From NCBI GenBank assembly GCA_965644315.1, contig CBFFRQ010000020.1:186001-250000 (forward strand): a DNA stretch of 64,000 nt. Reading direction: 5' to 3'. Position numbers and translations under genes: made by a program. Every line of letters starts with the position of its first letter. Positions within the stretch are counted from its first letter, which is position 1. Of this stretch, positions 39,501 through 63,500 are shown one piece after another. This stretch comes from Caecitellus pseudoparvulus. Its lineage: Eukaryota; Protista; Bigyra: Bicosoecida. The notes below the pieces were generated by a model that was given only the letters and a program-made list of their open reading frames with translations, was not told where the DNA came from and did no database searches.

Positions 39501-42500
39501 GGTGCCAGTGCTCAGCACCATGGCGCCGCTGTCGCCCGATGTCGACCCGCCCGACGCCAGTGTCACGGCCCCGCTGCTGCCCGACTGTGTCGTGCCAGTG
39601 CTCAGCACCAGCGACCCCGACACGCCCGTGCCCACAGCGTTGGCACTGCGCACCACCACTGCACCAGTGCTGGACACCGCACCACTCCCGCTCACCACAC
39701 TCACCACACCCCCCACACTGCCACCAGCAGTGCTGGCGCCAGCTGACACGTACACGTGCCCGCCGTCGCCCTGGTCAGTGCCGCCCACAGTCATGGACAT
39801 GCTGCCGGCGGCCCCCGATGTGGCGGCCCCCGTGGCCATGTGCAGGTACCCGGCGTCGCCCGTGAGCGCGGTGCCAGTGCTCAGCACCATGGCGCCGCTG
39901 TCGCCCGTTGTCGACCCGCCCGACGCCAGTGTCACGGCCCCGCTGCTGCCCGACTGTGTCGTGCCAGTGCTCAGCACCATGGCGCCGCTGTCGCCCGATG
40001 TCGACCCGCCCGACGCCAGTGTCACGGCCCCGCTGCTGCCCGACTGTGTCGTGCCAGTGCTCAGCACCAGCGACCCCGACACGCCCGTGCCCACAGCGTT
40101 GGCACTGCGCACCACCACTGCACCAGTGCTGGACACCGCACCACTCCCGCTCACCACACTCACCACACCGCCCACACTGCCACCAGCAGTGCTGGCGCCA
40201 GCTGACACGTACACGTGCCCGCCGTCGCCCTGGTCAGTGCCGCCCACAGTCATGGACATGCTGCCGGCGGCCCCCGATGTGGCGGCCCCCGTGGCCATGT
40301 GCAGGTACCCGGCGTCGCCCGTGAGCGCGGTGCCAGTGCTCAGCACCATGGCGCCGCTGTCGCCCGATGTCGACCCGCCCGACGCCAGTGTGACGGCCCC
40401 GCTGCTGCCCGACTGTGTCGTGCCAGTGCTCAGCACCATGGCGCCGCTGTCGCCCGATGTCGACCCGCCCGACGCCAGTGTCACGGCCCCGCTGCTGCCC
40501 GACTGTGTCGTGCCAGTGCTCAGCACCAGCGACCCCGACACACCCGTGCCCACAGCGTTGGCACTGCGCACCACCACTGCACCTGTGCTGGACACCGCAC
40601 CACTCCCGCTCACCACACTCACCACACCCCCCACACTGCCACCAGCAGTGCTGGCGCCAGCTGACACGTACACGTGCCCGCCGTCGCCCTGGTCAGTGCC
40701 GCCCACAGTCATGGACATGCTGCCGGCGACCCCCGATGTGGCGGCCCCCGTGGCCATGTGCAGGTACCCGGCGTCGCCCGTGAGCGCGGTGCCAGTGCTC
40801 AGCACCATGGCGCCGCTGTCGCCCGATGTCGACCCGCCCGACGCCAGTGTGACGGCCCCGCTGCTGCCCGACTGTGTCGTGCCAGTGCTCAGCACCATGG
40901 CGCCGCTGTCGCCCGATGTCGACCCGCCCGACGCCAGTGTCACGGCCCCGCTGCTGCCCGACTGTGTCGTGCCAGTGCTCAGCACCAGCGACCCCGACAC
41001 GCCCGTGCCCACAGCGTTGGCACTGCGCACCACCACTGCACCAGTGCTGGACACCGCACCACTCCCGCTCACCACACTCACCACACCGCCCACACTGCCA
41101 CCAGCAGTGCTGGCGCCAGCTGACACGTACACGTGCCCGCCGTCGCCCTGGTCAGTGCCGCCCACAGTCATGGACATGCTGCCGGCGACCCCCGATGTGG
41201 CGGCCCCCGTGGCCATGTGCAGGTACCCGGCGTCGCCCGTGAGCGCGGTGCCAGTGCTCAGCACCATGGCGCCGCTGTCGCCCGATGTCGACCCGCCCGA
41301 CGCCAGTGTCACGGCTCCGCTGCTGCCCGACTGTGTCGTGCCAGTGCTCAGCACCATGGCGCCGCTGTCGCCCGATGTCGACCCGCCCGACGCCAGTGTG
41401 ACGGCCCCGCTGCTGCCCGACTGTGTCGTGCCAGTGCTCAGCACCAGCGACCCCGACACGCCCGTGCCCACAGCGTTGGCACTGCGCACCACCACTGCAC
41501 CAGTGCTGGACACCGCACCACTCCCGCTCACCACACTCACCACACCCCCCACACTGCCACCAGCAGTGCTGGCGCCAGCTGACACGTACACGTGCCCGCC
41601 GTCGCCCTGGTCAGTGCCGCCCACAGTCATGGACATGCTGCCGGCGGCCCCCGATGTGGCGGCCCCCGTGGCCATGTGCAGGTACCCGGCGTCGCCCGTG
41701 AGCGCGGTGCCAGTGCTCAGCACCATGGCGCCGCTGTCGCCCGATGTCGACCCGCCCGACGCCAGTGTCACGGCCCCGCTGCTGCCCGACTGTGTCGTGC
41801 CAGTGCTCAGCACCATGGCGCCGCTGTCGCCCGATGTCGACCCGCCCGACGCCAGTGTCACGGCCCCGCTGCTGCCCGACTGTGTCGTGCCAGTGCTCAG
41901 CACCAGCGACCCCGACACGCCCGTGCCCACAGCGTTGGCACTGCGCACCACCACTGCACCAGTGCTGGACACCGCACCACTCCCGCTCACCACACTCACC
42001 ACACCGCCCACACTGCCACCAGCAGTGCTGGCGCCAGCTGACACGTACACGTGCCCGCCGTCGCCCTGGTCAGTGCCGCCCACAGTCATGGACATGCTGC
42101 CGGCGGCCCCCGATGTGGCGGCCCCCGTGGCCATGTGCAGGTACCCGGCGTCGCCCGTGAGCGCGGTGCCAGTGCTCAGCACCATGGCGCCGCTGTCGCC
42201 CGATGTCGACCCGCCCGACGCCAGTGTGACGGCCCCGCTGCTGCCCGACTGTGTCGTGCCAGTGCTCAGCACCATGGCGCCGCTGTCGCCCGATGTCGAC
42301 CCGCCCGACGCCAGTGTCACGGCCCCGCTGCTGCCCGACTGTGTCGTGCCAGTGCTCAGCACCAGCGACCCCGACACACCCGTGCCCACAGCGTTGGCAC
42401 TGCGCACCACCACTGCACCAGTGCTGGACACCGCACCACTCCCGCTCACCACACTCACCACACCGCCCACACTGCCACCAGCAGTGCTGGCGCCAGCTGA

Positions 42501-45500
42501 CACGTACACGTGCCCGCCGTCGCCCTGGTCAGTGCCGCCCACAGTCATGGACATGCTGCCGGCGACCCCCGATGTGGCGGCCCCCGTGGCCATGTGCAGG
42601 TACCCGGCGTCGCCCGTGAGCGCGGTGCCAGTGCTCAGCACCATGGCGCCGCTGTCGCCCGATGTCGACCCGCCCGACGCCAGTGTCACGGCCCCGCTGC
42701 TGCCCGACTGTGTCGTGCCAGTGCTCAGCACCATGGCGCCGCTGTCGCCCGATGTCGACCCGCCCGACGCCAGTGTGACGGCCCCGCTGCTGCCCGACTG
42801 TGTCGTGCCAGTGCTCAGCACCAGCGACCCCGACACGCCCGTGCCCACAGCGTTGGCACTGCGCACCACCACTGCACCAGTGCTGGACACCGCACCACTC
42901 CCGCTCACCACACTCACCACACCCCCCACACTGCCACCAGCAGTGCTGGCGCCAGCTGACACGTACACGTGCCCGCCGTCGCCCTGGTCAGTGCCGCCCA
43001 CAGTCATGGACATGCTGCCGGCGGCCCCCGATGTGGCGGCCCCCGTGGCCATGTGCAGGTACCCGGCGTCGCCCGTGAGCGCGGTGCCAGTGCTCAGCAC
43101 CATGGCGCCGCTGTCGCCCGATGTCGACCCGCCCGACGCCAGTGTGACGGCCCCGCTGCTGCCCGGCTGTGTCGTGCCAGTGCTCAGCACCATGGCGCCG
43201 CTGTCGCCCGATGTCGACCCGCCCGACGCCAGTGTCACGGCCCCGCTGCTGCCCGACTGTGTCGTGCCAGTGCTCAGCACCAGCGACCCCGACACGCCCG
43301 TGCCCACAGCGTTGGCACTGCGCACCACCACTGCACCAGTGCTGGACACCGCACCACTCCCGCTCACCACACTCACCACACCGCCCACACTGCCACCAGC
43401 AGTGCTGGCGCCAGCTGACACGTACACGTGCCCGCCGTCGCCCTGGTCAGTGCCGCCCACAGTCATGGACATGCTGCCGGCGACCCCCGATGTGGCGGCC
43501 CCCGTGGCCATGTGCAGGTACCCGGCGTCGCCCGTGAGCGCGGTGCCAGTGCTCAGCACCATGGCGCCGCTGTCGCCCGATGTCGACCCGCCCGACGCCA
43601 GTGTCACGGCCCCGCTGCTGCCCGACTGTGTCGTGCCAGTGCTCAGCACCATGGCGCCGCTGTCGCCCGATGTCGACCCGCCCGACGCCAGTGTGACGGC
43701 CCCGCTGCTGCCCGACTGTGTCGTGCCAGTGCTCAGCACCAGCGACCCCGACACACCCGTGCCCACAGCGTTGGCACTGCGCACCACCACTGCACCAGTG
43801 CTGGACACCGCACCACTCCCGCTCACCACACTCACCACACCGCCCACACTGCCACCAGCAGTGCTGGCGCCAGCTGACACGTACACGTGCCCGCCGTCGC
43901 CCTGGTCAGTGCCGCCCACAGTCATGGACATGCTGCCGGCGGCCCCCGATGTGGCGGCCCCCGTGGCCATGTGCAGGTACCCGGCGTCGCCCGTGAGCGC
44001 GGTGCCAGTGCTCAGCACCATGGCGCCGCTGTCGCCCGATGTCGACCCGCCCGACGCCAGTGTGACGGCCCCGCTGCTGCCCGACTGTGTCGTGCCAGTG
44101 CTCAGCACCATGGCGCCGCTGTCGCCCGATGTCGACCCGCCCGACGCCAGTGTGACGGCCCCGCTGCTGCCCGACTGTGTCGTGCCAGTGCTCAGCACCA
44201 GCGACCCCGACACGCCCGTGCCCACAGCGTTGGCACTGCGCACCACCACTGCTCCACTTTGTGATACAAGGCCTGCACCGCTGATTACTTGAACAGTTCC
44301 TCCTGCCATTGATCCGTCTTCTGTGAGCCCTGCTGTGAAAGTCACATCACCTGCTTGATCCGCATTGCCAGTTCTGATGAATAGTGAGCCAGACTGTCCC
44401 CCAAGAGCTTTACCTGTTTGCATGTTTAACGGTCCGCTGTATCCGAGCAGCGATCGCCCAGTTTGTGCCAGGATCCGTCCGGACGTACTCGTCCTCTTTG
44501 AATCGGGTGTTGCCACTTTGCTGTCTCCGCTGCTACCATATTCAGACGTGCCACTGGACACAAGCACCTTCCCACTTGTCCCTGTTTTGGCTGAGCCAGA
44601 TTTAAGAGAAGCTTCTCTGCCAGCTTTGTGATCGACTCGTGAACCTGAAGTTGTTCCCGCTTTCAGAAGGATTGGCTGAGCTGGACTGGACTGTTGGGAT
44701 GCTGCGCCACGGATAGACACGTGACCTCCATGCGAACCGTCCCCTCCCTCAAGAATTACCGAGCCAGCATGGCCAAATCTAGAGCTGCCAGCAACGAGCT
44801 TGACCGCTCCGGCTTTGCCAGTGCTCGTTGATCCGGATTCAAGGTGCAACGAACCTGATTGTGACATGTCTGATGTAGCCCTTCCGGTCATGAGGCGAAT
44901 GTCTCCACCTCGCTGAGAAGGAGCAGTCACAAGTAAAACAGAACCAGTTTCTTTCCCTCTTCCGGTAGCTACGTACACATTGCCACTCGCATTGGATTGC
45001 GAAGACTCAAGTGAGATGCCTCCGCCAGATTGCCCCCCACTGAAGCCAGCGGCCAAGACCAGCTTACCTGAACCATGGGTCCCCGCACTTCTCACTGAAA
45101 CCGAGCCTCCCAAACTGGAGCCTTGCCCGCCCTTCAGGCGCAGATCACCACCGGATGCCACGCCGTTCGCAGCTTTCAAGGAAATCGTGCCTGCTGCTGA
45201 TAGCAGTGGTTTTGTCTGTCTTGACATTCCTGAAAAGACTTCTATATCCCCCGATAGTGCAGCGTTTCCGGTTCTTAGGTCGGCAGGGGGAGAAGTGCTT
45301 GAAGAGCTGCCGAAGAGAAGCTGAACTGACCCAGAGGAAACACCACGCCCTGAAACCACCGCCATATCGCCTGTTCGCGGACTGTCTCCACTTGAGAGTG
45401 CCACATCGCTTGTTTTGTTTTCAATACTATGAGCGGTCATGATACTTATCATGGCAGGCACTCCACTTGCATGTTGCACAGCCCCAGAAACACTTCGCAC

Positions 45501-48500
45501 ATGCCCTCCTGGATTCATAGACAATCCTCCGAGGAGCTCTACATGGCCGGCCGAAAGTGAACTGGAGGCAGATCGCATCAGTAATGAACCTGAAGAGCGC
45601 TCCGCTGGTGCTGTTGATGCAATCATCTTGCCACTTGTACTTGCTGTGCCAGTGATGACGTGCACAGCACGTTCTCGCATGTCAGAACTGTGAGTGGTGC
45701 TTGAAGCTGCCGAAGCCCTGAATGAGCCACTGTACTCTGATTGGCCTGTAGCTATCGATACGTTGGCAGCTGCTATGTGAATCGGACTTCCACTTTCGGA
45801 TCGGTTTGCAGTAAATGCGATCCTTCCCGAGTTTTCCCCGAATCCTCCTTCAATTCTAGCAGCACATTTGCCAAGCAAGCACTCAGCGACAACCACGACA
45901 CTTCCACCCTGAAGGTCGCCCAACCCAGCTGCCAAAGACAAAGAGCCTCCAACTTGCCCGTCGCCGGCGCTAAACTGGACACTCGCAGCTTGGCCTGATG
46001 TTCCGTGGGCTGAAAGTGTGAATGCTGCAGAGTTTCCACGTGTCTGGGAAACAGAGCCAACAAACAAATCAACGTTGCCGCTTGACGGCCCCCTTCCTGT
46101 GCTTACTGAAATAGAATCAGAAAGAAGGTTGGCTTCACTGTGTGCCGCATGTGAGACAGCATCCATTTCAATGTCCGCTGACTCATCATGCTCTGTCTTT
46201 GCTGAGTGCCAGACAATTTGCTTTGCGTGTTGCTGGATAGTCGAAGCGTTAAGCGAAATGCTCCCACTCACACCCATGCTTTGATGCGCAAGCAGCTCTA
46301 CATCGCCTCCTTCCAGTAACACGTCACCGCTTCTATGCAGCCCGTCTCCAGTTTCAATGCCGATGCCGCCTGACCCTGCAGATTCGATAGCCACACTTCG
46401 AGACTGAAGAGCCACGTTCCTTCCTGAGTGAAGTTGAATGCTCGCAATTCCGCCGTCCGCTGCGGCACTAAGTGTTGCTCCTTGTAGAAGTACCTGCCCT
46501 GCTTGGTCTCCACTCCCTGCTTCAATGATTGAGGAACGACCGCTGCTTACTTGCACGTTGCCAGCCTTCAGTTCTGATCGTCCAGAAGAAATTGACACAG
46601 AGCCACCAAAGCGACCAGTCCCGGTTGTAGCGGAGATCTTTTGTGCACGAGCTTCAGCGCTTCCGCCATTTTGGATGGAGTTGCCTGCCGCATTCTGAAT
46701 ACTGCCCCCGCTAGGTGCAGTTCCGGCTCGTACTTCTACGGTTGGGCCTGACCGCAGTGCTGGTGCCGCTTCAGCCTGGAAATCGCCGCTTCTCAAATCC
46801 GAGTCTCCAGACACAAGCTGGATGAGACTCTTTTCATGCTCTGACTCGAGACGGAGAAACACTCGTTGTGCCGCACGGTGGTGCTGTCCTCCAACAATCA
46901 CTTGAGCAGATGCTGCTGCTGCGGCAAGAGACAGATCTGCCTGCCCAAGGGAGGTTGATTCGAGGTGTGTCTTTGCAACTCCAAGGCGTGCTCGGCTTGT
47001 GGTGCTGACGACCATCTTAGCCCTTTTCGTACCAGGATTGCCCGATAGCGCCTTGACAGCCGCCGCCGACCCAGCCACTGCACTCGTGCCAAAGGCAGAC
47101 TGTGCCGAAAGCACAGCAGTGGACTGAGAACTTGCTTGAGCAAGCGACTGGATCTGTTTTCTGGATTCCATTTTCACTTTCTGATGACCTGGAATGGCAG
47201 TCTGGGTGCTGCGTGCCGAAATGTGCACCGAGCCCTGTTTGGAGAGTATGCCGATGGTGCCGACTTCGCGGCTGTTGCCTGCCATAACCATCGACTTGCC
47301 TTCGGACAACAACGCAAGAGACCCGCTGGACGAAGTCCCTTCCCCGCTTTCTACATGGATACCACTACTGATTGCCGCACCACCAGAGCGGAAGGATAGT
47401 GAGCCTGATTTCACCTGCGCAGGGGAAGACCTTATCAATGCTGTGCCTCGAGACGAAACACTGATTGAGTTATCAAATTGCCCAACCGACATCCCAGAAG
47501 TAATAGCCACTCTACCAGAGGTGCCTTTTGAATCGCCAGAGTGCAAATGCAAGTTTGCCAAGGCTTGGGCTGCATCACTCCTGTCGAGATTGATTGAGCC
47601 AGACGAAACTGCTGCACCGGATTGCATGTAGATCCGCCCTGATGCGTGTCCTTGACCCGAAGAAAACCGAACTGCACCTGAAGCTTGAGTTGAAGACCCG
47701 CTGCGTGTAAGAACATTGCCAGACGAGCGGCCTCTTCCTGAACCAGTTCGGAAAATTCCTGTCACTTCACCTGCTCCCCCAATCATCAGCATGCTGCCTG
47801 ACACTTGTGAAGCTCCTGACCGCAAGGATGCATGCCCAGATGCATGCACACTTGCACCTGAACCAACAGATATTTGACCGCTGTTGGATCGTCCACTACC
47901 AGACTGTAGTCGGAGAGAGTGTGCCCAGAGGGTTGCATGACCAGAATGCGCATTGCCATGTGAAAACATCTGAAGGGCCCCAGTTCTCGAATACAAGGAT
48001 GCGTCTTGGCTTGAAGTCAATTCAACCCGCGATCCAGCAGTGATGCTTTTTCCGCTGGACACCATGAGCCCTGAACCCCCTTGCGCTGAAGACTCAGAGG
48101 AAACGTCCACGGCAGTGGCATTCACGACAAGAGCAGCAGAGCCTAACCTTGAGAATGCTGAAAACCTGGCACTTGCCTGCAGGCCTGTGCCAGTTAAGAT
48201 AGTAGCAGACCCACTGGCAGCCGATGATGCTTCAAAGCGGGCCTGATGTGTCGATTGGATGCTCACTCCTGAGGCTTTGGCACGAAAATCGGAAGTGGCT
48301 TCCAGCCTTTGCAGAGACCCAGCACCGTCTGTCACAAGATCAACTAAGCCTAAGCCACGTGGCTGGGCCAGGCTTCGAACAGACAGTGAGTCCTGAGAAA
48401 CAATCTGGGTTGTTCTTGCTGAGAAAAGAATGTGGCTTGTACGGGAGGTTTCAAGTGAACAGCCAATACATACACCCGTTCCCCTTACAGCTGCAGCCGA

Positions 48501-51500
48501 AGTCCCCTGCTTTGCAGGCGCCGACCCCAACACGACGGATCCTGAAGATTCTAAGGCATCTCCACTTTTAAGAATCATGTGCCCAGATGAGTATGCTTCG
48601 CCGGAAGCTAAGCGAACACTTCCTGAAGCTGCCGCTGCGTTTGAAGTGCGAGCATTCAAGTCGCCTTCTGAACGGAATGAAACCTCACCACCGACATTGC
48701 TTCCACCACTGAGAACAGTCAATCGTCCCTGTTCCTTCCCTTTCCCAGCCATCACATGTATTTCCCCTGCGCCGTGCTGCAAAGAAGTGCCTGTTTGCAG
48801 GAGTATACCTCCAGGCAAACGAGCTCTGCCCGTGTGCAGAGACACTGCCCCAGAAGTTGCTGCAGAGCCACTCAGAATAGCAGATTGTAGAGTTTCGGTG
48901 CCAGAAAGGGCAAAAATGCCCATTGGGGGACTTTCCATTCGGCCTTCCGACCGAAGAATTACCGCTCCACCCAGCCCCGTGAACCCGTCGCCCCCGCAAG
49001 CTTGGATACTCGACGCTCCAAGCGTGAGGCCTGAGTCAGACTGAAGGTGGAGAAGTCCGCCTTGCTTTCCGGACGACCCTGAGCGCACATCCATCCTTCC
49101 ATGGGAGACTACTTCTGCGTGGCTTTTGTTCAAAAGCACGCCCGCCCTGATCACAATTGACCCGCTGACCTCGTTTGCCGATCCAGTTCGTGCGCCAAGA
49201 GTTGCACCATCCACAGAAATAGTTCCACCCAAGACATTTATTCCACCGCTGTGTGAAGATCCTGAACCTGACACAACTTCCATGTCGGTTGATGCTGTGG
49301 CACCTTCTGATGAGGACATCAGCATGCTTCCACTGTCAAGCCTTCCCTTGGAGGCCAGCTCAATGAGCCCGCTGCTGGATTTGCCGATACCACTTCTGAC
49401 AAGCAGTTTACCCCCACTGCTTAGTTCTACCAGACCACCAGCTGCTGTTCCCGCTCCCGCTGAAAGGGATAGAGACCCAGCACTCGCAAGCCCTGAACCT
49501 GAAGAAACAATCGTCTTGGAACTGCTAAACATGTCAAGGACTGATTCAGCCCCCAGTGAATCTCCGGATGAAATGCAAACACTACCTGCCTGCCTCTTTT
49601 GTGCTGCCCCATTGATGAGCACCTCTGTTCGTCCGTTCCCCGCTGATTTCGAGACCACAGAGACTCCGCCTGAGCTACTTGTAATGCTCTGAGAAGTGGC
49701 TTTGGCTGTAAAATTGTTTGACAACACCGAAACGGAACTCGCTTCGTGTCCTTGCGCACTGACGGACACGGTAGAGAGTTGCTCGGAATGTGCTTCAGAG
49801 AGAAGCGATTCGGTTTCCGCAACCAAACTGTCAGCAGATGCCTCTGTGGCTGCAGGACCCTGCAGGCTGTCTGAATGAATCAGAACATTGCTCATACCGT
49901 CTAGTGCTCCTTCAGATCTAAGGCTCACCATCGATTCTTCCGATAGTGAAGTTGAACGAAGGGCAAGAGGTTCGTGACCCGCATTGTGGGATGTCACTCG
50001 AATGGTGCGGGCTGTGGCAAGTATGTTGGATGACATGGCGCGGATGGAGGCATCGCCGGCTCCTCCACTGACGGAGTGAAAGCGCAAATATGCACCATCC
50101 AATCGTACATGCCCTGCGTGCACCCCTGTCCCGGTACTAAGGCCCATGTGATCAGCCTGAAGATTAAGGACCCCTGATGAACCGTGCGATGCGCCTGACT
50201 CGACCCTGATACCACCACTCTCACGTTCAAGAGTCGATGCCGAGGAAAGAGAAGCTGAATCTGCATCCATAAGAATGTTTCCTCCAGTATGGCTTCCTAC
50301 ACCAGCCTCAAACTGGACAGAGCTGCTAGATAGGCCGGCTCCGGATTGGACGGAAAGCTCACCAGCAGAGGAAAACGAAACATCTCCAGAATCCTCTTGA
50401 GAGAGACCTGAAAAGAAGGTCAAGAGGCCAGATGAAGGCCCAGCACCTGTTCCAAGCTTTACTTGTCCAGAGGATTTCAGGCTTGCTCCAGAAGACATAG
50501 AAGCACCCCCGCTTGACATGCCACCTGAGCTGGCCATGGTCACTTGGCCAGCTCCAGAGACGACATGCAGCGCTCCAGTGGAATTTAATCCGCTACCTGA
50601 AGTCAAAGACACTAAGGCCGAGGTAGCGCTTACTGATGAGAACACCTTGACGCTTCCAGAATCTTGAGAGCCGCCAGTCTCCACACGAATGGGACCATCT
50701 GCTTCCAAAATTGCGTTTCCGCTTGATCCTCCATCCCCTGACCCAAGAAGAACCAGACTTTTCGCAAAAGGCGATTGGTGCGCTGTCAGGCGTACACCTT
50801 CACCACTCTTGACTGTGAAGTTGCCTGATTCTCTGGAAGAACCGGTCCTGATTGCGAGATGCTGTCCTTGCACAATAACGTCCTCTCTTGCGAGCGCGGT
50901 CAGGTGACCTAGCTCACTGCCAGAGCCGCTCTCAAGCTCAACTGCACTCTGCTTGCCAAATGCAGATACAGAGATAGCAGCACCTTCGGCACGCACCCTT
51001 GCATGCCCATGTTCAAGGGAATCAGCCAAAACGTTCGTTGCAGCCGTACCACCAACGGAGGAAACTTCCAATTCCCCTGCCGTAAGGCTTGTCACAGCGC
51101 TGCTAAGCCCAGCGCGAGATTCAAGAGCAAACGTTGCCGTTCTTCCGTCGGATACTGATTCAACGCTGCTTGCAAAAACGTGCACGCCTCCTGCCGATCC
51201 ATCCTCAAGCGACCCACTCGAGGCGTGCAAGGTGGAGGCGGCAACTCGCAGGCTGCCAGACTGACGAGCAGCACCCGTAGTCAGCCAAATGCGACCTGAA
51301 GAAAGTGTGGCACGCTCCGATTGCATCTTCACATTCCCAGATTGGTGATCAGAAGTTCCTGATCTGAAAATCAAACTGTCTTGCACTTCCCCCAAGACGG
51401 AAGCATTGACGCTCGAAGATGCAAGAAGGAGCGCTGAGCCTGAGTTGTTCGCATTCGCACTTGCCAAAAACACGTCGCCACCACTACTGATTTCTACAGA

Positions 51501-54500
51501 CCCACTCTTCTGAGATCCATCCTCTGACCCAGCTGAAATAGAGCCAGACTCAGATGAGGAGCCTGTCGTGGCACGAACCTGCCCTGTGATACTACCGGCG
51601 CCTGTCGCAAGCACAACCGCAGAAGGATCTGCTTCACCGTCGGCGGACATGATCAAATCCCCACTACTTACGTCGCCTACCCCAGACGCAAGGGTGGCAG
51701 ATCCACCTGCAACAATGCCGAGGCTCGACCCTTCTATGTCAATGGAGCCACCACCCACCGCACCACTGCCGACCGCCACCTGCACCGCACCGGACTCACT
51801 GCCCTCCCCACTCGTCATCATCACACCCCCTGACGAGCCACCAGAGCCGCCACTCTGCACACCCACGGCGCCCCCACTCGCCACACCCACACCACCTGCC
51901 CCGATCACCGTGACAGAGCCGCTGCTGCCCTCCAGAGCGCTGCCTGTGACCACCGCTAGAGCCCCCCCTGACCCACTCCCAGCAGCACCACTGCCAAACA
52001 CCACGCTGCCACTTGCTTCACCGCCTCCACTTAGCACCGTCACACCACCGCTGCCCGCTGCAGTACTGGACCCACTCCTGGTGCTGACAAGCCCGCTCGT
52101 GCCGTTCACACTTGACCCGCTGGACACCTCAACTGCAGAGCTTGCATCATCGCCCCCACCTCCACGCACCACGGCTCCCCCACCCACATCACCCCCACCA
52201 CCAGCCGCCAAAGCGTGACCACCGGCATGACTCTTGCTGGGTGCCACCATCATGTGCACGCTGGACCCAGCGCCAGTGATGGCGTTACCTGCAGCAAGTG
52301 TGATTGCACTGCCCTGCATGGCGACAACCCTTCCCTCCAATGCTGCACCATTGCTGCCATCCACCGACACCGCACTTCCGCTCACTACAGCATGCCCGCC
52401 ACTAATCTTCACTCGGCCAGTGTGTCCCATCGCATCGCCAGTTGCAATGAGCATGCCTCCAGCACCTGTGCCGCCTGTGCCTGTGTCGCCTGTCCTCACC
52501 TGCACTTTGCCAGATTGACGTGGCGCTGAGCCACTCTGCAAGCGTACAACACCAGACCTGTTTCCGGGCCCAGAAGATGCATATATCGTCCCTGCCTCAG
52601 TACTTGCAGATCCCACAACTAGATTCAACCCGCTTGATGTTGATGAGGCTGATCCAGACACGATGGAGAGCTCACCGCTTGAACCTGCTCCTGATGTACG
52701 CAAGCTAATGCCGCCAGAACGGCGCTCCCCGGTTCCCGATGCAACTTGCACGTGGCCTGATTTTCCTGTTCTTGCGGTGTTTTTCAGCGACCTCACAGCG
52801 ACCGCCCCTGAAGAAGTGTTGCCAGACAAATCAAGAGGAAACACAGCATTCTCTGCCTGCAACGCTGCAACCATGTCAATCGCCACTTTCGTTTGATCGA
52901 CTTCGTGAAAGTCTGGAAGAGAGAAGTTCTTGTCAGCAAACGACATATCATTGGCTTTGCGAACATACTCCGGGAGCACAGAGCTCACTTCCTGGGCGAT
53001 GAGCCCTCGAGTGGATTCGTCGCCGATCCCACGGACGCGACGCCACTCGGCCGTGAAGCGATACTGCTTGACCTTAAGTTTCAGGAGCTTCTGGCGTATG
53101 GCAAAAGGATCAACAGGCTCAATGTCTCTTTTGATGCGGCGATCTGAGAACGAGAATACCTGTGGAATATTGACGGGGATGTGTGACAAAAACTTGGACG
53201 GGAGAACACGTGCAACGGTCGAGCGATTAACAGCAAAGGATAGTGAGCTGGCACTGAGACTAGCCCGAGACAAACGTGCCTCCAAAACTTCACTTGAGAT
53301 GTTTGTCGATGATGACATTGACAAGGCTGCCATTCCACTGCCAAGTGTGATCAAACCAGCTCTGACTTCGACACTGCTTGTATGATTCGAGACAGCATGC
53401 ACATTCGTTTGCGAGGAAACCAATCCAGTTGACTGTAGCATGGCAGCTTTTGAAGCAAACCTAGCTGTCCCTGAGGTCATTCTCATAAAGCCGCCTCGGG
53501 CAAGCATGAGAGATGAGACAGCCTCAACACCGCCCCCTGACATTTCGAGCGTCCCAACAGCATTCACACCTTTCCCTGGCAAAAGTGAAACACGACGGGC
53601 GAAGGCCCCGAGTGTCGATGAAGAAGGCGATCGAATTGAAAGCAGACCAGCCGAAGCGGCGGAATCACCCACAATCAACGACACGCCCCCGCTGCCATGA
53701 CTCCCACTGCCGCTCCCCACATCCACGCCACCGGCCCCCACGACGCTCACCGCGCCACCCGCCACACTGATGCCGCCTGACTCAACACGCCCCGACCCAC
53801 TCTCATGTGCAACATCACCACCTGCCCCTGCCTTGCTGCCTCCACCTGCCACTTCGATCGCCGTGCCCCTCACATGCACACCTCTGCCGGACACTGCCAC
53901 ACCGCCCGGTCCATGAACGGCAGTACTGCCCCCCACAGCACCCCCACCACCTGCCACACTCACCAGACCACCCACAGCAGTCCCCGACCCACCCAACAGC
54001 CCCACATCACCCGATGCCGTCGACACTGACACATCGCCCGCTGCACTCGTGCCGCCCCCTGACAGCACTGACACGCCACCCTGGCCCTGCACTTGCATCT
54101 CCGTCTGCACTTGCACTTGCACGCTGCCGCTTGCGTGGGAGTCCGCTGAAGCAAGCGTGGACACTGCCACTGAGCCGGCTGGGCCTGCTGTGGAGCTGCC
54201 ACCAGCAACGTTGACACTTGCACCCGACAGCCCAACACCTTGCCCTGCCACGGTCATCGGCCCGCTGTGTGCGCCCTTGCTTGATCCAGACAGCTCTACT
54301 ATGCTCCCAGACTCTCGCAGTGCGTCCATCGTTGCGAAGTACACTTCTCCACTTTGTGGATGCCCCTTCCCCGAAGTGAGAACCAAAGACCCGCCGCTGA
54401 TGTCCGAACGCCCAGCGGCTACCTTGATGGCACCTGCGCTTTGTTGTGCTTGGCCAGTTTGAGCGGTGAGCCCCCCTGATCCAATCTCTGAGGCCTGTGT

Positions 54501-57500
54501 TTGGATGGACACTGCCCCACCTTCATCTGCAACGCCAACTCTAACGTGAATGGGGCCTGATTCAAGGTGCCCTTCACCACTCGCGAGCGTCATGTTCCCA
54601 CTTTGGTCCGCAGGGCCAGAACTGACCAGCATACCACCGGTTGCCGATGTACCGTCACCACTTCCAAGGAGAAGCACACCAGAATCCAACTTCCCAGTCC
54701 CGCTCTCTACCTCAACGTGTCCGGATGATGCAGCTGCACCTGAGGAGAGGCCCACATGGCCTGACTCTCCGGAGGCTGTGCTACCGCTTTCAGCAAACAG
54801 CACTCCACTTGACACCGTCGCCCCACCAGTCTGCACAGTGACAATCCCTGTTGCATCTGCATCCCTTGTGTACATGGCCACCGCGCCTGAAACATGCTGA
54901 GCTGACCCACCTGAGCGCGCCGACACAAGCCCAGATCCACGTGATGAGCTTGCCCCCGACGAAATCGTGGCCTCGGCCCCATGCGACTTGGAATCCTGGC
55001 CCTTGACTTCAACACTCCCAGTTGCTCCACTGGGGATTTCAGTGTGGCCACTCGACATGTGGACACCCCCACTTGCCCTTGTGCCAGTACCAGACTCCAG
55101 ACTGAGAATCCCTGAGCTTGAGACCGCCACATCACCGCCCCCGGAGCTAGAGTGAATAACAACCGAACCTGACGCAAACCTGGCATCCAGACTCTGCAAA
55201 GTCACATTACCATTCTTTGCTCTCACGCGAGCAATGCCACCAGAATTGCCTGCTTCTGCCTTCATAACAGTATCTGCACCCACCAGGGTCACTGCAGATC
55301 GGGAGCTGCCACTGCCAGCTTGCAACAGCACGTCGCCCGCCCCCCCCACACTGCTTCGAGCCTGCAAGGATGCGTGCCCACTCGCCCCTGAGCTACTAAC
55401 TGTCTCAATGCTCACGGGTGCTGCGCTACCAATGAGTGCAGACCCACCCACTCCCTCCGCTGACTCACCAGCACCAGCCACCACGCGCTCACCAGTGCCA
55501 GCCTCAAGCCCCACATCACCCCCCACCAAACCACTACCACCCGACACCTGCACAGTTGACCCCATACCAGCAAGCACGCTCACTGAGCCGCCCACAAGCC
55601 CATCGCCACCCTGCACACCGACAGCCCCTGCAACACCACCCCCACCTGCGCCCGACACCATGGCTACTGACCCGGCCTGTCCTCCCACGCTTCTCCCCCC
55701 CGCCACCGACACAGCACCATGGCCTCGACCAACCCTCGTGCTCACATCACCAGCACCCAGCACTCCCCCGCCACTGCCAATCGCCACAGCGCCAGACCTG
55801 CCCACAGCGCTGTCCCCGCTGCGCACATCCAAGGCCCCTGACGCCACACCACCACCTGACATGCCGGTGCCCAATGCCACACTGTCCCCGCCCTCAATGC
55901 TGACTGACCCACTCTGTTCGCTCAAGCTTGAGCCGCTCACAGTCAACACACTGCCTCCACGCACAGCTCGGCCACCACCACCAAGGACTCTGACCTCCGA
56001 CCCCGCCACACCAATGCTGCCGCCCTCCACACCCCCGCCAGCGGACACAGTCACATGGCCGGCTGTCGCCCCTTCCCCGCTCACAATGCGGGACTCCCCC
56101 CCATCATCACTGCCATCGCCTCCACCGACCCTGACACCTGCCGCACCAGCCAACTCCACACCACCCCCCTGACCCTGCCCACGCCCCGCCCCAACACCAA
56201 CACTCGACCCAGACAACACAACTGACCCCGACGCCAGGCTGCTTTGCCCAGCACCCACCATGATCGACCCTGCCGTGCTGCTTCCCTCGCCCACCCGCAT
56301 GGTCACATCCCCACTTGCACCTTGCCCGGCACCGCTCCCCAGCACAACACTGCCGGACAGCCCCCCATCACTTGCACTGCCGCTCCGCACCTGCACACGG
56401 CCACCTCCCCCATGCACAGACGCCCCTGCATGTACACTCACGGCGCCCCCAGCACTCCCCACCACACCGGCATCGCCACCCGCCCACCTCACACTGCCAC
56501 CAACGCCCCTCGCCGCCACGCCTCCCCTCATCGCTAGCCTGCCACCAACTCCTCCATCGCTGACACCGCTGGACACTGTGACACCCCCCCTTCCCACGAC
56601 ACGCACGTTGCCGCCGCTCCCTGCAGCGCCACCAGCAACGACACTGGAGCCACCACCAACACCTGCATCTGATGCTCCACCTGACACACCCACACTGCCT
56701 CCCACGATGCCCACCGCCCCTGCCCCTGTACCGCCATGGCCTGCTTGCACTGACAAGCCACCACTAGTGCCGTTCACACCCCTCCCGCTCACGACGCGCA
56801 CAGCCCCACTACCACCTGCACTGCTGCCGCTCCCCAGACTCGCTGCACCGCTGGACCCTCCTGAGCTGGAACCGCTGCCCAGTGTGACGCCCCCACTGGC
56901 CCCACTGCCGCTGCTACTCACCGTCACATTGCCTGACGCTCCATGCTCAGACCCACCAGCTACTGCACTCACACTGCCACCAATCACACTGCCATCACCA
57001 CCGACCAAGTGCAAGGCGCCACCACCCACCGCACCACTGCCGACCGCCACCTGCACCGCACCGGACTCACTGCCCTCCCCACTCGTCATCATCACACCCC
57101 CTGACGAGCCACCAGAGCCGCCACTCTGCACACCCACGGCGCCCCCACTCGCCACACCCACACCATCTGCCCCGATCACCGTGACAGAGCCGCTGCTGCC
57201 CTCCAGAGCGCTGCCTGTGACCACCGCTAGAGCCCCCCCTGACCCACTCCCAGCAGCACCACTGCCAAACACCACGCTGCCACTTGCTTCACCGCCTCCA
57301 CTTAGCACCGTCACACCACCGCTGCCCGCTGCAGTACTGGACCCACTCCTGGTGCTGACAAGCCCGCTCGTGCCGTTCACACTTGACCCGCTGGACACCT
57401 CAACTGCAGAGCTTGCATCATCGCCTCCACCTCCACGCACCACGGCTCCCCCACCCACATCACCCCCACCACCAGCCGCCAAAGCGTGACCACCGGCATG

Positions 57501-60500
57501 ATTCTTGCTGGGTGCCACCATCATGTGCACGTTGGACCCAGCGCCACTGATGGCGTTACCTGCAGCAAGTGTGATTGCACTGCCCTGCATGGCGACAACC
57601 CTTCCCTCCAATGCTGCACCATTGCTGCCATCCACCGACACCGCACTTCCGCTCACTACAGCATGCCCGCCACTAATCGTCACTCGACCAGTGTGTCCCA
57701 TCGCATCGCCAGTTGCAATGAGCATGCCTCCAGCACCTGTGCCGCCTGTGCCTGTGTCGCCTGTCCTCACCTGCACATTGCCAGATTGACGTGGCGCTGA
57801 GCCACTCTGCAAGCGTACAACACCAGACCTGTTCCCGGGCCCAGAAGATGCATATATCGTCCCTGCCTCAGTACGTGCAGATCCCACAACTAGATTCAAC
57901 CCGCTTGATGTTGATGAGGCTGATCCAGACACGATGGAGAGCTCACCGCTTGAACCTGCTCCTGATGTATGCAAGCTAATGCCGCCAGAACGGCGCTCCC
58001 CGGTTCCCGATGCAACTTGCACGTGGCCTGATTTTCCTGTTCTTGCGGTGTTTTTCAGCGACCTCACAGCGACCGCCCCTGAAGAAGTGTTGCCAGACAA
58101 ACCAAGAGGAAACACAGCATTCTCTGCCTGCAACGCTGCAACCATGTCGATCGCCACTTTCGTTTGATCGACTTCGTGAAAGTCTGGAAGAGAGAAGTTC
58201 TTGTCAGCAAACGACATATCATTGGCTTTGCGAACATACTCCGGGAGCACAGAGCTCACTTCCTGGGCGATGAGCCCTCGAGTGGATTCGTCGCCGATCC
58301 CACGGACGCGACGCCACTCGGCCGTGAAGCGATACTGCTTGACCTTAAGTTTCAGGAGCTTCTGGCGTATGGCAAAAGGATCAACAGGCTCAATGTCTCT
58401 TTTGATGCGGCGATCTGAGAACGAGAATACCTGTGGAATATTGACGGGGATGTGTGACAAAAACTTGGACGGGAGAACACGTGCAACAGTAGATCCTGCT
58501 GCAGCGAAATGAACCGATTCAGCTGCTGAAAGGTTCATCCTAAATGCTGCTACATGGAGTGGTTTATCTTGTGCGTAAACGCTTACTCCAGATGGCTGCA
58601 CACTAACAAAGGTGCTAGACGATGATACGTTTAGTGTGTTCGAACGAAATATAGCTCTGTCTCCAACAACATCAACATTTGAAGCTGAAAAAAGTCGAAC
58701 AAGTCCACCTACTTTGCCACCTCCCCCAGCCACACCAACCACGCTCCCACCACCAGCTACACGTGATGCCCCCGACTCAACCCCCACCACGCCACCGCCG
58801 CCAACCCGCACACCGCTTCCACCGGCCAACCGCAAGCCACCATCAGCATGTGTGCCTACGTCCACATTGCCTGCACCAACCACGCCTACTGACTGCCCAG
58901 CGAAAGACACCTCACCCCCAGCACCGCTGCCACTGGCCCCCCCGTGCACACGCACGGCACCACCCAAACCGCCCTCGGCGCGGCCCCCCCGCACGACTGC
59001 ATCGCCTGCGTGCACTGCAGCTGCACCGCTCTCAATGGACACGCCCCCGCTGCCATGACTCCCACTGCCGCTCCCCACATCCACGCCACCGGCCCCCACG
59101 ACGCTCACCGCGCCACCCGCCACACTGATGCCGCCTGACTCAACACGCCCCGACCCACTCTCATGTGCAACATCACCACCTGCCCCTGCCTTGCTGCCTC
59201 CACCTGCCACTTCGATCGCCGTGCCCCTCACATGCACACCTCTGCCGGACACTGCCACACCGCCCGGTCCATGAACGGCAGTACTGCCCCCCACAGCACC
59301 CCCACCACCTGCCACACTCACCAGACCACCCACAGCAGTCCCCGACCCACCCAACAGCCCCACATCACCCGATGCCGTCGACACTGACACATCGCCCGCT
59401 GCACTCGTGCCGCCCCCTGACAGCACTGACACGCCACCCTGGCCATGCACTTGCATCTCCGTCTGCACCTGCACTTGCACGCTGCCGCTTGCGTGGGAGT
59501 CCGCTGAAGCAAGCGTGGACACTGCCACTGAGCCGGCTGGGCCTGCTGTGGAGCTGCCACCAGCAACGTTGACACTTGCACCCGACATCCCAACACCTTG
59601 CCCTGCCACGGTCATAGGCCCGCTGTGTGCGCCCTTGCTTGATCCAGACAGCTCTACTATGCTCCCAGACTCTCGCAGTGCGTCCATCGTTGCGAGGTAC
59701 ACTTCTCCACTTTGTGGATGCCCCTTCCCCGAAGTGAGAACCAAAGACCCGCCGCTGATGTCCGAACGCCCAGCGGCTACCTTGATGGCACCTGCGCTTT
59801 GTTGTGCTTGGCCAGTTTGAGCGGTCAGCCCCCCTGATCCAATCTCTGAGGCCTGTGTTTGGATGGACACTGCCCCACCTTCATCTGCAACGCCAACTCT
59901 AATATGAATGGGGCCTGATTCAAGGTGCCCTTCACCACTCGCGAGCGTCATGTTCCCACTTTGGTCCGCAGGGCCAGAACTGACCAGCATACCACCGGTT
60001 GCCGATGTACCGTCACCACTTCCAAGGAGAAGCACACCAGAATCCAACTTCCCAGTCCCGCTCTCTACCTCAACGTGTCCGGATGATGCAGCTGCACCTG
60101 AGGAGAGGCCCACATGGCCTGACTCTCCGGAGGCTGTGCTACCGCTTTCAGCAAACAGCACTCCACTTGACACCGTCGCCCCACCAGTCTGCACAGTGAC
60201 AATCCCTGTTGCATCTGCATCCCTTGTGTACATGGCCACCGCGCCTGAAACATGCTGAGCTGACCCACCTGAGCGCGCCGACACAAGCCCAGATCCACGT
60301 GATGAGCTTGCCCCCGACGAAATCGTGGCCTCGGCCCCATGCGACTTGGAATCCTGGCCCTTGACTTCAACACTCCCAGTTGCTCCACTGGGGATTTCAG
60401 TGTGGCCACTCGACATGTGGACACCCCCACTTGCCCTTGTGCCAGTACCAGACTCCAGACTGAGAATCCCTGAGCTTGAGATCGCCACATCACCGCCCCC

Positions 60501-63500
60501 GGAGCTAGAGTGAATAGCAACCGAACCTGACGCAAACCTGGCATCCAGACTCTGCAAAGTCACATTACCATTCTTTGCTCTCACGCGAGCAATGCCACCA
60601 GAATTGCCTGCTTCTGCCTTCAGAACAGCATCTGCACCCACCAGGGTCACTGCAGATCGGGAGCTGCCACTGCCAGCTTGCAACAGCACGTCGCCCGCCC
60701 CCCCCACACTGCTTCGAGCCTGCAAGGATGCGTGCCCACTCGCCCCTGAGCTACTAACTGTCTCAATGCTCACGGGTGCTGCGCTACCAATGAGTGCAGA
60801 CCCACCCACTCCCTCCGCTGACTCACCAGCACCAGCCACCACGCGCTCACCAGTGCCAGCCTCAAGCCCCACATCACCCCCCACCAAACCACTACCACCC
60901 GACACCTGCACAGTTGACCCCATACCAGCAAGCACGCTCACTGAGCCGCCCACAAGCCCATCGCCACCCTGCACACCGACAGCCCCTGCAACACCACCCC
61001 CACCTGCGCCCGACACCATGGCTACTGACCCGGCCTGTCCTCCCACGCTTCTCCCCCCCGCCACCGACACAGCACCATGGCCTCGACCAACCCTCGTGCT
61101 CACATCACCAGCACCCAGCACTCCCCCGCCACTGCCAATCGCCACAGCGCCAGACCTGCCCACAGCGCTGTCCCCGCTGCGCACATCCAAGGCCCCTGAC
61201 GCCACACCACCACCTGACATGCCGGTGCCCAATGCCACACTGTCCCCGCCCTCAATGCTGACTGACCCACTCTGTTCGCTCGAGCTTGAGCCGCTCACAG
61301 CCAACACAGTACCTCCACGCACAGCTCGGCCACCACCACCAAGGACTCTGACCTCCGACCCCGCAACAGCAATGCTGCCGCCCTCCACACCCCCGCCAGC
61401 GGACACAGTCACATGGCCGGCTGTCGCCCCTTCCCCGCTCACAATGCGGGACTCCCCCCCATCATCACTGCCATCGCCTCCACCGACCCTGACACCTGCC
61501 GCACCAGCCAACTCCACACCACCCCCCTGACCCTGCCCACGCCCCGCCCCAACACCAACACTCGACCCAGACAACACAACTGACCCCGACGCCAGGCTGC
61601 TTTGCCCAGCACCCACCATGATCGACCCTGCCGTGCTGCTTCCCTCGCCCACCCGCATGGTCACATCCCCACTTGCACCTTGCCCGGCACCGCTCCCCAG
61701 CACAACACTGCCGGACAGCCCCCCATCACTTGCACTGCCGCTCCGCACCTGCACACGGCCACCTCCCCCATGCACAGATGCCCCTGCATGTACACTCACG
61801 GCGCCCCCAGCACTCCCCACCACACCGGCATCGCCACCCGCCCACCTCACACTGCCACCAACGCCCCTCGCCGCCACGCCTCCCCTCATCGCTAGCCTGC
61901 CACCAACTCCTCCATCGCTGACACCGCTGGACACTGTGACACCCCCCCTTCCCACGACACGCACGTTGCCGCCGCTCCCTGCAGCGCCACCAGCAACGAC
62001 ACTGGAGCCACCACCAACACCTGCATCTGATGCTCCACCTGACACACCCACACTGCCTCCCACGATGCCCACCGCCCCTGCCCCTGTACCGCCATGGCCT
62101 GCTTGCACTGACAAGCCACCACTAGTGCCGTTCACACCCCTCCCGCTCACGACGCGCACAGCCCCACTACCACCTGCACTGCTGCCGCTCCCCAGACTCG
62201 CTGCACCGCTGGACCCTCCTGAGCTGGAACCGCTGCCCAGTGTGACGCCCCCACTGGCCCCACTGCCGCTGCTACTCACCGTCACATTGCCTGACGCTCC
62301 ATGCTCAGACCCACCAGCTACTGCACTCACACTGCCACCAATCACACTGCCATCACCACCGACCAAGTGCAAGGCGCCACCACCCACCGCACCACTGCCG
62401 ACCGCCACCTGCACCGCACCGGACTCACTGCCCTCCCCACTCGTCATCATCACACCCCCTGACGAGCCACCAGAGCCGCCACTCTGCACACCCACGGCGC
62501 CCCCACTCGCCACACCCACACCATCTGCCCCGATCACCGTGACAGAGCCGCTGCTGCCCTCCAGAGCGCTGCCTGTGACCACCGCTAGAGCCCCCCCTGA
62601 CCCACTCCCAGCAGCACCACTGCCAAACACCACGCTGCCACTTGCTTCACCGCCTCCACTTAGCACCGTCACACCACCGCTGCCCGCTGCAGTACTGGAC
62701 CCACTCCTGGTGCTGACAAGCCCGCTCGTGCCGTTCACACTTGACCCGCTGGACACCTCAACTGCAGAGCTTGCATCATCGCCCCCACCTCCACGCACCA
62801 CGGCTCCCCCACCCACATCACCCCCACCACCAGCCGCCAAAGCGTGACCACCGCCCTGACTCCCGGCACCCGCCTCGACAGTCAAAGACTCTGCTTGCAT
62901 CTGCAAGGCACCGCCCGCGCCCTGGCTGGAGCCCACCATGAGCTTCGCGCCCCCCCCAGCAGACCCAAGCGACACGTCGCCCACTTGCCCACTTGCCAGC
63001 AGGACTGCCTCGCCAGCCACCAATGCCGACCCTGATGCCTGGACGCCGATGTCTCCGCTGCCTGCCACCCCTGTGCCGGTGTGCATGGCCAGTCCTCCGC
63101 TGCGCCCCGATGTGGCCACTCCGCTTGCCAACACAAGCGAGCTCCCACCTGCTTGGCTGCTGCCTGCCTGCGCTGCAACACGCCCACTCCTGCCCCCCGC
63201 CCCGCTGATGACAGCGACGCCGCCCCCCTTTGACATGCTCAATGCAAGGCTATCGCCCCCTTGCACCTCCACAGTGCCTGATGTAGTCTTGCCAGGGCCT
63301 GTGCCAATGCGCACCTGCCCACCCTGCCCGCTGGCCCCCGCTGAGCCAACTCCCACCTCCACGCGGCCACTTGAGCCACCAACTGAACCACCGTGCCCGC
63401 TCTCCAGTGTCAAGGCACCTGACCCTCTCGCGCCCTCGGCACTCGTCACTGATACCTCGCCTGTCGTCGCTTCCCGCCCTGACAAGGCTTCAGAGAACCT

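Follow-up and report, generated by a model that had tools for sequence, protein, structure and literature searches.

Two internal MYRF-type ICA domains in a giant Gly/Ser repeat gene from a Caecitellus pseudoparvulus assembly, possible cut sites of a predicted trimeric fibre

Triple beta-helices normally fold from a single C-terminal chaperone. Phage chaperones used here as references are T5 pb1 (4uw8), K1F endosialidase, which we take 3gw6 to be, and GA-1 gp12, presumably 3gud. For MYRF, it is already known that the ICA is internal and stays on the C-terminal fragment (PMC3742443). According to the accessible part of PMC8326128, K1F has a long tentacle gripping the stalk and the MYRF-type ICA has almost no contact with the upstream stalk; the same text reports that a Y615/Y617 double mutation abolishes normal MYRF cleavage and that the second half of the coiled-coil is needed for it, L692A or R695A blocking cleavage. 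Going by the accessible part of the preprint (bioRxiv 10.1101/2025.09.30.679562), the closest precedent for the gene described here is the TLP-12 glycofibril candidates, among them a 19,853-aa Amoebophrya protein (A0A8J1ZHD7).

Two ICA domains inside a giant repeat gene

The window, meaning the whole 64,000-nucleotide stretch analysed, contains two MYRF-type ICA (S74) modules that lie internally in a giant Gly/Ser repeat gene. We propose, at a probability of roughly 60% and on the basis of structure models and sequence features, that such modules bring three chains together into a beta fibre, which is likely cut before each Ser. The main features are as follows.

32238..63998, minus strand: open frame of 10,586 aa, 5' end open; the part of the giant Gly/Ser repeat gene that comes first in the window
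58494..59037, minus strand: linker U1, before ICA copy 1, unlike U2; junction found in Logan contigs
58419..58601, minus strand: beta-rich neck upstream of ICA copy 1, with inter-chain intertwining predicted by structure models
58113..58418, minus strand: ICA copy 1; PF13884 E 1.3e-12; its predicted model matches 7dc3
53148..58418, minus strand: predicted middle piece of 1,757 aa (ICA copy 1, repeats and neck) that would arise if both sites were cut; the spacing is observed
53223..53679, minus strand: linker U2, before ICA copy 2; junction found in Logan contigs
52842..53147, minus strand: ICA copy 2; PF13884 E 1.4e-12
44300..51743, minus strand: diverged single-copy GxhxhxxG repeats of 13-15 residues, at ~1x depth
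3450..44256, minus strand: near-identical array encoding 15-mer repeats, with units of 459 bp (65/91) and 369 bp (21/91)
32260..32266, minus strand: frame break 1, a 371-bp unit in place of 369
12586..12602, minus strand: frame break 2, a 461-bp unit in place of 459
2..12580, minus strand: last in-window segment, running open to the window end without a stop and without a further ICA

The first-pass annotation had made its reading depend on a PF13884 (Peptidase_S74) match, and the match is significant for both copies, over profile positions 1-57/58 and with 48 bits (cut-off 22). Its other sequence observations are confirmed as well: the S-D-R-R-I-K motif with Lys at +5 is present in both copies, the Ser codons starting at 58418 and 53147 on the minus strand in the same frame and spaced by 5,271 bp, i.e. 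the 1,757 aa it had calculated, and its GLIAQEV is seen twice as RGLIAQEV, with the Gly/Ser repeats resuming both times. Copy 1 also has Tyr at +28, Phe at +30 and an 18-residue terminal helix (residues 186-203 of the model, ending at a Pro), and the core of copy 2 is the same at the protein level, with a single synonymous difference.

By sequence and by fold, the closest PDB match is the MYRF ICA 7dc3. The AF2 monomer model has a mean pLDDT of 76, rising to about 94-97 in the ICA core, and matches 7dc3 with an E of 1.6e-8 and an rmsd of 2.1 A over 113 columns, and the fold matches to the phage chaperones 3gw6, 3gud and 4uw8 are weaker (E 4e-3 to 2e-2). MYRF-like flanks, namely an Ndt80-type DNA-binding domain and a membrane anchor, gave no Pfam match, the ICAs being flanked by Gly/Ser repeats. 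Across eight window segments (~10,200 of 21,300 aa, including a minor part of the array) Pfam returned only the two S74 matches above cut-off and reported no PF13887-type family at E<=1, and 500 aa of the repeats searched against PDB sequences returned 0 matches at E<=1. As to the further copies that the first-pass annotation wanted sought, a family HMM run on all six frames of the window found just these two; the gene start and the C-terminus lie outside the window, which shows no signal peptide either.

The repeat period is 13-17 residues (mode 14-15), and only one tandem 12-mer motif match occurs in 10,586 aa. Ser and Thr together account for 20-33% of residues, depending on the region, a content that makes dense O-glycosylation possible. 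Long plus-strand ORFs were considered as genes and rejected as antisense shadows of the repeat. Two of the 91 array units are 2 bp too long, each by two single-base insertions (32260/32266 and 12586/12602), and these frame breaks are likely sequencing errors. If so, the last piece, earlier put at >17,700 aa, would reach 17,715 aa; as assembled it is broken twice, the frame that starts at ICA copy 2 ending at the stop at 32238 after 6,969 aa.

Duplication and origin of the locus

Both ICAs lie within a large duplication, the 1,479-bp ICA block adjoining a second block of 3,825 bp.

57015..58493: duplicated block with ICA copy 1, 98.9% identical to 51744-53222; 2x depth in three DNA runs
51744..53222: duplicated block with ICA copy 2, the partner in the 1,479-bp pair
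59038..62862: repeat block A, 3,825 bp, 99.4% identical to 53680-57504; parts are recopied outside the window

Because the two ICAs sit inside one 98.9% identical duplication, they amount to one data point: the dyad they share is a single observation, and the copies are not independent. We asked whether the second ICA might even be an artefact, two alleles or reads having been joined in tandem by the assembler. The 99% identity between the copies would fit, as would the lack of any one contig spanning both and the two frame breaks of the window, which are of a kind typical for long-read errors. However, the ICA contig has about double the single-copy depth in the runs X1, X3 and X5 (158.8, 28.1 and 80.4 against ~76, 16 and 45.7), and the linkers are not at half depth (71.2, 15.6 and 48.1 for U2; 54.4, 12.8 and 32.8 for U1). 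A doubled depth in three DNA runs shows that the duplication is real, and on these grounds we reject an artefact as highly improbable.

Since the second site is a recent segmental duplicate, the length of 1,757 aa need not be a tuned value. It may even be that one internal ICA suffices, the second being a by-product of segmental amplification in the 5' part of the gene and the 1,757-aa piece having no role. Several observations fit this: the blocks are 98.9-99.4% identical, a 490-bp head occurs in three copies, more copies exist upstream at about 2.5-5.7x depth, nonsynonymous and synonymous differences between the duplicated blocks stand at a near-neutral 10:6 and 15:8, not indicating strong constraint, and an identical ICA pair is also found in the related chain L005. 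Nevertheless, U1 and U2 are unalike, which fits an older duplication homogenised by gene conversion or modules put together as a mosaic. The junctions of both linkers turn up in runs from three studies, and relatives with divergent intact ICA pairs exist. We regard a roleless duplicate as a serious but somewhat doubtful explanation. An accidental duplicate would be compatible with cutting.

The first-pass annotation had framed the domains by phage fibres, and the phage chaperones named above (3gw6, 3gud, 4uw8) do share the PF13884 fold and the dyad. They are, however, single, C-terminal and released, whereas the window ICAs are two and internal; the nearest phage match is at 31%, and the eukaryotic family described below is the right comparison. 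S74 domains being typical of phage fibres, the gene could in principle come from a giant virus, phage or bacterium and encode a fibre of the virion or cell surface. An S74 protein of a giant virus is on record (PMC13659346, in its accessible part). No intron joint was seen in the contigs of runs X14 and X16 (presumed RNA), which cover gene parts including the junction of U1 and the ICA (a coverage that does not by itself prove transcription), and one relative, P0087, on a 3.5-kb contig, is labelled as an archaeal MAG (1 of 30 relatives looked up). Against this, the remaining named close relatives are all oomycetes, and variants in X1 have roughly half the depth, the picture expected of a diploid. 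Scans with a narrow pattern, whose blanks are therefore weak, confirmed 0 of 17 matches in GTDB, gave two distant loci in IMG/VR (30-34%) and, among 50,697 phage records, the one phage at 31%. No close phage relative having been found in these scans, a phage origin is rejected, and a viral or bacterial one is in general very unlikely. The gene likely belongs to a marine stramenopile.

A family of Ser-bearing and Ser-less internal ICAs

The window ICA belongs to a family of 244 proteins (E<=0.001), of which 119 domains reach at least 90 bits and 105 enter the counts of Ser and Lys. Named members come from Aphanomyces euteiches, A. astaci, Achlya hypogyna and Phytophthora infestans (4 of 30 relatives looked up). 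The ICAs are surrounded by Gly/Ser units of 14-15 residues, and the repeats resume after the ICA in 58 of the 62 domains, among those 119, with sufficient downstream sequence. On a quick tree (145 columns; 37 of 87 inner branches open) the internal-ICA family forms a clade separate from MYRF/MrfA with a support of 100, and the window ICA falls inside the family, at the end of a long branch (0.85). It scores 149 bits on the family HMM, with a short helix at its end that leads directly into GxhxhxxG repeats, four of them within the next 100 aa, and has lost the HRRF motif that follows the helix in the family.

Chains of relatives carry 2-4 ICAs (P0004, P0007, P0172, P0173/P0174 and L005). The earlier suggestion of a polyprotein finds support in the divergent intact ICA pairs of P0172 and of P0173/P0174 (1,912-1,914 aa apart, the ORF end cutting off the second copy). 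In the window itself the second copy is a recent duplicate and the last piece is broken as assembled. The companion suggestion, that a retained ICA could act as a joint, is supported by the family too, as intact and Ser-less ICAs are mixed in the chains of P0004, P0007, P0172 and L005.

All ICAs might be uncut joints, i.e. nodes that only bring the trimer into register, or the cut pieces might stay locked, so that one continuous fibre results. Ser is lost in 27 of the 105 domains, in 20 of them to Ala and with the fold motifs kept, and with a quarter of the domains lacking it, cutting would be dispensable in many chains. The intact and Ser-less states change 12 times on the quick tree, at least three of these changes being forced by starred branches, and in the close relatives P0172 and P0004 the second ICA has TSDNRIK and TADERIK, respectively. 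In addition, equivalents of MYRF L685/L692/R695/L699 are missing from the window ICA, where the coiled-coil needed by MYRF is cut short, and this makes the case against cutting. The behaviour of the Lys points the other way: both residues are kept in 78 of the 105 domains, and Lys is lost in none of these 78 Ser-bearing domains but in 15 of the 27 Ser-less ones (Fisher p 3e-11, uncorrected for kinship), as expected of a working dyad where Ser is present. The aromatics of the cut site are also kept, and with almost no contact between ICA and stalk in the MYRF type (PMC8326128, accessible part), cut pieces would probably part. We therefore consider an entirely uncut or locked fibre unlikely, if far from negligible. 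With losses of Lys confined to domains that also lack Ser, intact copies are probably cut, and judging from these sequence patterns the Ser-less copies probably persist as joints.

Fibre model and comparison with known systems

The prediction for the window chain is a homotrimer in which strands between chains form both before and after the ICA. The trimer model scored 0.80 against 0.00 for the best of three controls, a difference that may reflect memory of 7dc3/MYRF. In calibration, 21 of 30 solved homo-pairs passed the threshold, against 0 of 23 single chains, but only one of seven eukaryotic tests without a solved relative did so, and the trimer job differed from the calibration in using three copies, with the alignment unused. 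Contacts agree to at least 95% between runs, pLDDT is at least 78, inter-chain contacts fall at 215-224, 230-239, 245-252, 261-263 and 276-277, and Lys107 touches residues 130/132/133 of the adjacent chain. The downstream repeats modelled as a monomer reach a pLDDT of 51-63, with almost no secondary structure.

In the fibre we propose, each ICA would bring three chains into register, and the repeats that precede it would zip into a shaft of the triple beta-helix type. The Ser-Lys dyad would then cut, and the ICA would remain on the following piece and cap its N-terminus, as happens in MYRF, while the downstream repeats would stand in for the shortened coiled-coil and anchor the trimer. Cutting at both sites would yield an N-terminal piece of >1,860 aa, a middle one of 1,757 aa and a very long one at the end. 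The second cut site would have arisen by the recent segmental duplication, and in relatives without the Ser the module would be retained uncut, as a joint. By analogy, the fibre may be extracellular and glycosylated.

With >20,000 residues and several chaperones inside it, such a chain suggests how fibres of this kind might fold section by section while still being translated, and how pieces of defined length might be released. We know of no proteins identified for the stramenopile surface filaments considered here. The repeat link to proteins with tubular mastigoneme domains offers a candidate for these filaments, which have been known from microscopy since 1971 (PMC2108286, accessible part). 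Tentatively, and we would not stake much on it, such filaments, possibly the fine terminal or lateral ones of flagellar hairs, could come from one giant precursor in which the ICAs act as a switchable code: copies with Ser would be cutters and determine how long each of several trimeric fibres becomes, those without it would be permanent joints, and a duplication or a single Ser-to-Ala change would re-partition the fibre. The natural mix of Ser-bearing and Ser-less domains is a ready test of cutter versus joint. On a practical matter, PITG_01491 of Phytophthora infestans is a family member annotated merely as uncharacterised or S74-containing, and neither it nor ACHHYP_10472 is named in the full-text literature searched, which covers subscription journals only in small part. 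Within the same literature and without bioRxiv supplements, where Fig. S5 on TLP-12 could show internal ICAs, no description was found of ICAs that are internal to, or repeated in, the repeat proteins of stramenopiles, and S74 terms are absent from two preprints (main text) and from seven supplementary files belonging to two proteomics papers.

Compared with MYRF, the window ICAs share the internal position, the fold and the Ser-Lys dyad (S587/K592; SDRRIK in the window), and their Tyr and Phe at Ser+28 and Ser+30 occupy the places of Y615/Y617 relative to S587. MYRF differs in having one ICA, a DNA-binding domain, a membrane anchor and a four-heptad coiled-coil, whereas the window has two ICAs, neither of the other domains in the eight segments scanned, and an 18-residue helix after which the fibre repeats resume.

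The 15-mer repeat (~400 aa) also occurs, together with EGF-like domains, in P0164, P0170 and P0171; P0164 and P0170 (the two checked) have a C-terminal S74, and P0170, over its first 190 aa, matches tubular mastigoneme chains of 9ufe with E down to 5e-38. P0170 has the Cys-rich, EGF-like mastigoneme domain and the signal peptide that mark the N-terminus of tubular mastigoneme proteins (OCM/Mas). These mastigoneme-domain proteins, grouped here with the OCM chains of 9ufe, have the 15-mer repeat and S74 in common with the window, but are secreted and ~2,200 aa long, with a terminal ICA that has a long coiled-coil. No mastigoneme domain was seen in the window, the N-terminus lying outside it. The link between the window and these proteins rests on low-complexity repeats.

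With the TLP-12 candidates, as far as the accessible part of the preprint describes them, the gene shares a protist host, a length of about 20,000 aa, short Gly/Ser-rich repeats, an ICA as proposed folding aid and, if the trimer model holds, a trimeric beta shaft. TLP-12 differs in its 12-mer GSxxSx7 repeat, its C-terminal ICA and its occurrence in alveolates, whereas the repeats in the window are 13-17-mers and the ICAs internal and repeated. The S74/ICA domain itself and an internal ICA in MYRF were already known; new here, to judge from the literature searched, are internal and repeated ICAs in Gly/Ser repeat chains.

Internal ICA domains and their duplication

The entire window is the interior of a single minus-strand gene, whose features are as follows:

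63998 to 32238, minus strand: open frame of 10,586 aa, with no start codon within the window
58418, minus strand: Ser codon of the first ICA
53147, minus strand: Ser codon of the second ICA
3450 to 44256, minus strand: array of near-identical 459-bp and 369-bp units
about 32400 to 12573, minus strand: second open frame
about 12800 to the window end, minus strand: third open frame

The encoded protein consists of GxhxhxxG units with a period of 13-17 residues, mostly 14-15, and contains, by region, 15-27% Gly and 17-20% Ser. The motif matches 71 times against 17 in shuffles over the first 1,780 aa, and 232 times against 29 in the array. Two of the 91 array units are 2 bp over length, each through two single-base insertions, and both excesses look like candidate long-read errors in an unpolishable repeat. 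Very long plus-strand open frames also run across the array (12356-32503, 32023-39072, 39271-44292 and 3048-12590) and are probably antisense shadows of the repeat.

The observation of internal ICAs in this giant repeat gene is real. As the first-pass annotation had read it, SDRRIK occurs twice, with RGLIAQEV after each copy, the Ser sites lie 1,757 codons apart, and more repeats resume after each domain; both domains match the PF13884 profile (E about 1e-12). The piece of more than 17,700 aa that it drew from the second ICA does not hold as assembled, the frame from there stopping after 6,969 aa, and the family HMM found no third copy in the window's six frames. Its two intact dyads are both present but count as one observation because they sit in a near-identical duplicated block of 1,479 bp (98.9% identity), with an adjoining duplicated block of 3,825 bp (99.4%). 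The ICA cores differ by a single synonymous change, and the linkers immediately upstream are unlike each other.

The duplication of the ICA block is itself real. Logan contigs of three DNA runs, each from a different study, put the depth of the block at 158.8, 28.1 and 80.4, where single-copy DNA lies at about 76, 16 and 45.7, and both junctions upstream of the ICAs are found at 0.7-1.05x; that the second copy is an assembly artefact is very improbable. The window itself may derive from one of the three runs. No single Logan contig covers both copies, so their tandem order is only consistent with the data. The contigs also loop from 64000 to 58718 (period about 5.3 kb, about 2.5-3.7x depth, variant cores) and flanking blocks reach about 2.5-5.7x, which shows extra flanking-block copies outside the window, without this ICA, probably upstream within the same gene. 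Variants at about half depth in one run (X1) suggest a diploid, and the named habitats among holders of the window's sequence are marine.

A family of internal ICAs

Searching 1.84 billion representatives with phmmer turned up 244 proteins at E<=0.001, and a family HMM built from 57 domains of these relatives was scored on the best 150 of the 244, two relatives' DNA records (L003 and L005) and the window. At a bar of 90 bits, 119 domains were found in 112 sequences; lower-scoring domains were excluded from the counts, and those of them with downstream sequence were mostly MYRF-like or terminal types. Among these 119 domains, repeats resume after the helix in 58 of the 62 with at least 72 downstream residues. 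A quick tree (92 rows) sets the family apart from seven MYRF-like rows with support 100.

Several ICAs per chain are recurrent among relatives:

P0004: one intact and two Ser-less ICAs
P0007: one intact and one Ser-less ICA
P0172: two intact and one Ser-less ICA
P0173/P0174: two motifs, both intact, at a spacing of about 1,910 aa, with the later copy truncated by the ORF end
L005, 2-15145, plus strand: 5,048-aa open frame carrying two identical intact and two Ser-less ICAs, the last three at 590-aa spacing in the order intact, Ser-less, intact

Beside this recurrence stands the near-identity of the window's own pair, and it is quite possible, if not our preferred view, that the second copy is incidental, a question separate from cutting.

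Oomycete names were carried by 4 of 30 looked-up proteins (Aphanomyces euteiches, A. astaci, Achlya hypogyna and Phytophthora infestans), and one came from EukProt. Another, P0087 (RYE85057.1), is a typical family member that sits on a 3.5-kb contig and bears the label of a Methanosarcinales MAG tail-fibre protein; it is possibly mis-binned eukaryotic DNA. None of 17 pattern matches in prokaryote genomes was confirmed, IMG/VR yielded two loci, both distant, and phage records one phage match at 31%. These sparse matches and the oomycete-named relatives make a stramenopile host likely, and a viral or bacterial origin improbable.

Frame 1 of L003 (1-11334, plus strand; 3,778 codons) has 25 in-frame TAG, no TAA and no TGA, all three being present in the other two frames; TAG probably encodes an amino acid there, and a test of sequence context leaned towards a polar residue without pinpointing which. 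A 12.5-kb metagenome contig (L012) carries three more distant S74 domains across two frames.

A 500-aa repeat query returned ten proteins, four of them with S74. P0164, P0170 and P0171 (about 2,200 aa each) combine EGF-like domains, long beta repeats and an S74; in the first two, EGF-like N-terminal domains precede about 400 aa of identical-type 15-mer repeats and a C-terminal S74. P0170 opens with a hydrophobic stretch that by eye resembles a signal peptide, and residues 1-190 are matched by six tubular mastigoneme chains in PDB 9ufe. All three are candidate filament subunits of flagellar hairs. P0165 (Lagenidium giganteum) joins about 520 aa of these repeats to a region weakly like importin-13/transportin-3, below cut-off, and is probably a fused gene model.

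Predicted trimer formation, probable cutting and known systems

AlphaFold2, given a 301-aa segment and 86 aligned sequences, modelled the ICA core confidently and placed beta strands ahead of it, and the repeats that follow came out weak and without structure. Foldseek matched the model to the MYRF ICA 7dc3 (E 1.6e-8, rmsd 2.1 A); its matches to phage chaperones were weaker. The ICA region is predicted to form a trimer: the three-copy fold scored 0.80 against 0.00 for the best control, its contacts agreed to at least 95%, and pLDDT was no lower than 78. This pass may reflect a memorised structure, because 7dc3 is solved, only 1 of 7 eukaryotic pairs without a solved relative reached the mark, and the mark was calibrated on two-copy jobs (21/30 solved homo-pairs, 0/23 single chains). 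In the trimer model, chains touch through the neck and about one strand per downstream repeat, and Lys107 contacts the neighbour's Tyr130/Phe132, the positions of MYRF Y615/Y617 (PMC8326128).

Where both motif positions are present, 78 of 105 of the domains that reach 90 bits carry Ser and Lys and 27 are Ser-less (20 Ala); Lys is lost in 0 of the 78 against 15 of the 27, counts that take in near-copies and a few, possibly misaligned, fragment starts. Switches between the two states number 12 on the quick tree, against a shuffled mean of about 21, at least three being forced by starred branches. We put at roughly 60% the reading in which each ICA would set three chains in register, the upstream shaft would then zip up, the Ser-Lys dyad would cut just before Ser, and the ICA would stay with the next piece as its cap, as happens in MYRF (PMC3742443). 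That the ICAs are instead joints, either uncut or cut yet still locked together, seems unlikely.

The terminal ICA helix has only 18 residues with a Pro at its end, whereas the MYRF coiled-coil has four heptads, in which L692 and R695 are required for cutting (PMC8326128). This shortening is family-wide among the domains scored, so the trimer would need another part to hold it, the downstream shaft being the simplest candidate. TLP-12, by cryo-EM, is a glycosylated trimer of 12-mers with a triple beta core and a 9.6 A rise per repeat, and the candidates assigned to it are Amoebophrya proteins some 20,000 aa long that carry an ICA at the C-terminus (10.1101/2025.09.30.679562). Assuming 4.8-9.6 A per repeat, the putative middle piece between both Ser sites would very roughly measure 50-140 nm and the putative last piece 0.6-1.4 micrometres. 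Repeated internal ICAs that combine a short coiled-coil with both Ser-bearing and Ser-less copies in one chain were not found in the full-text literature searched; the ICA itself, its internal use in MYRF and giant protist ICA fibres, as in the TLP-12 candidates, are already known.
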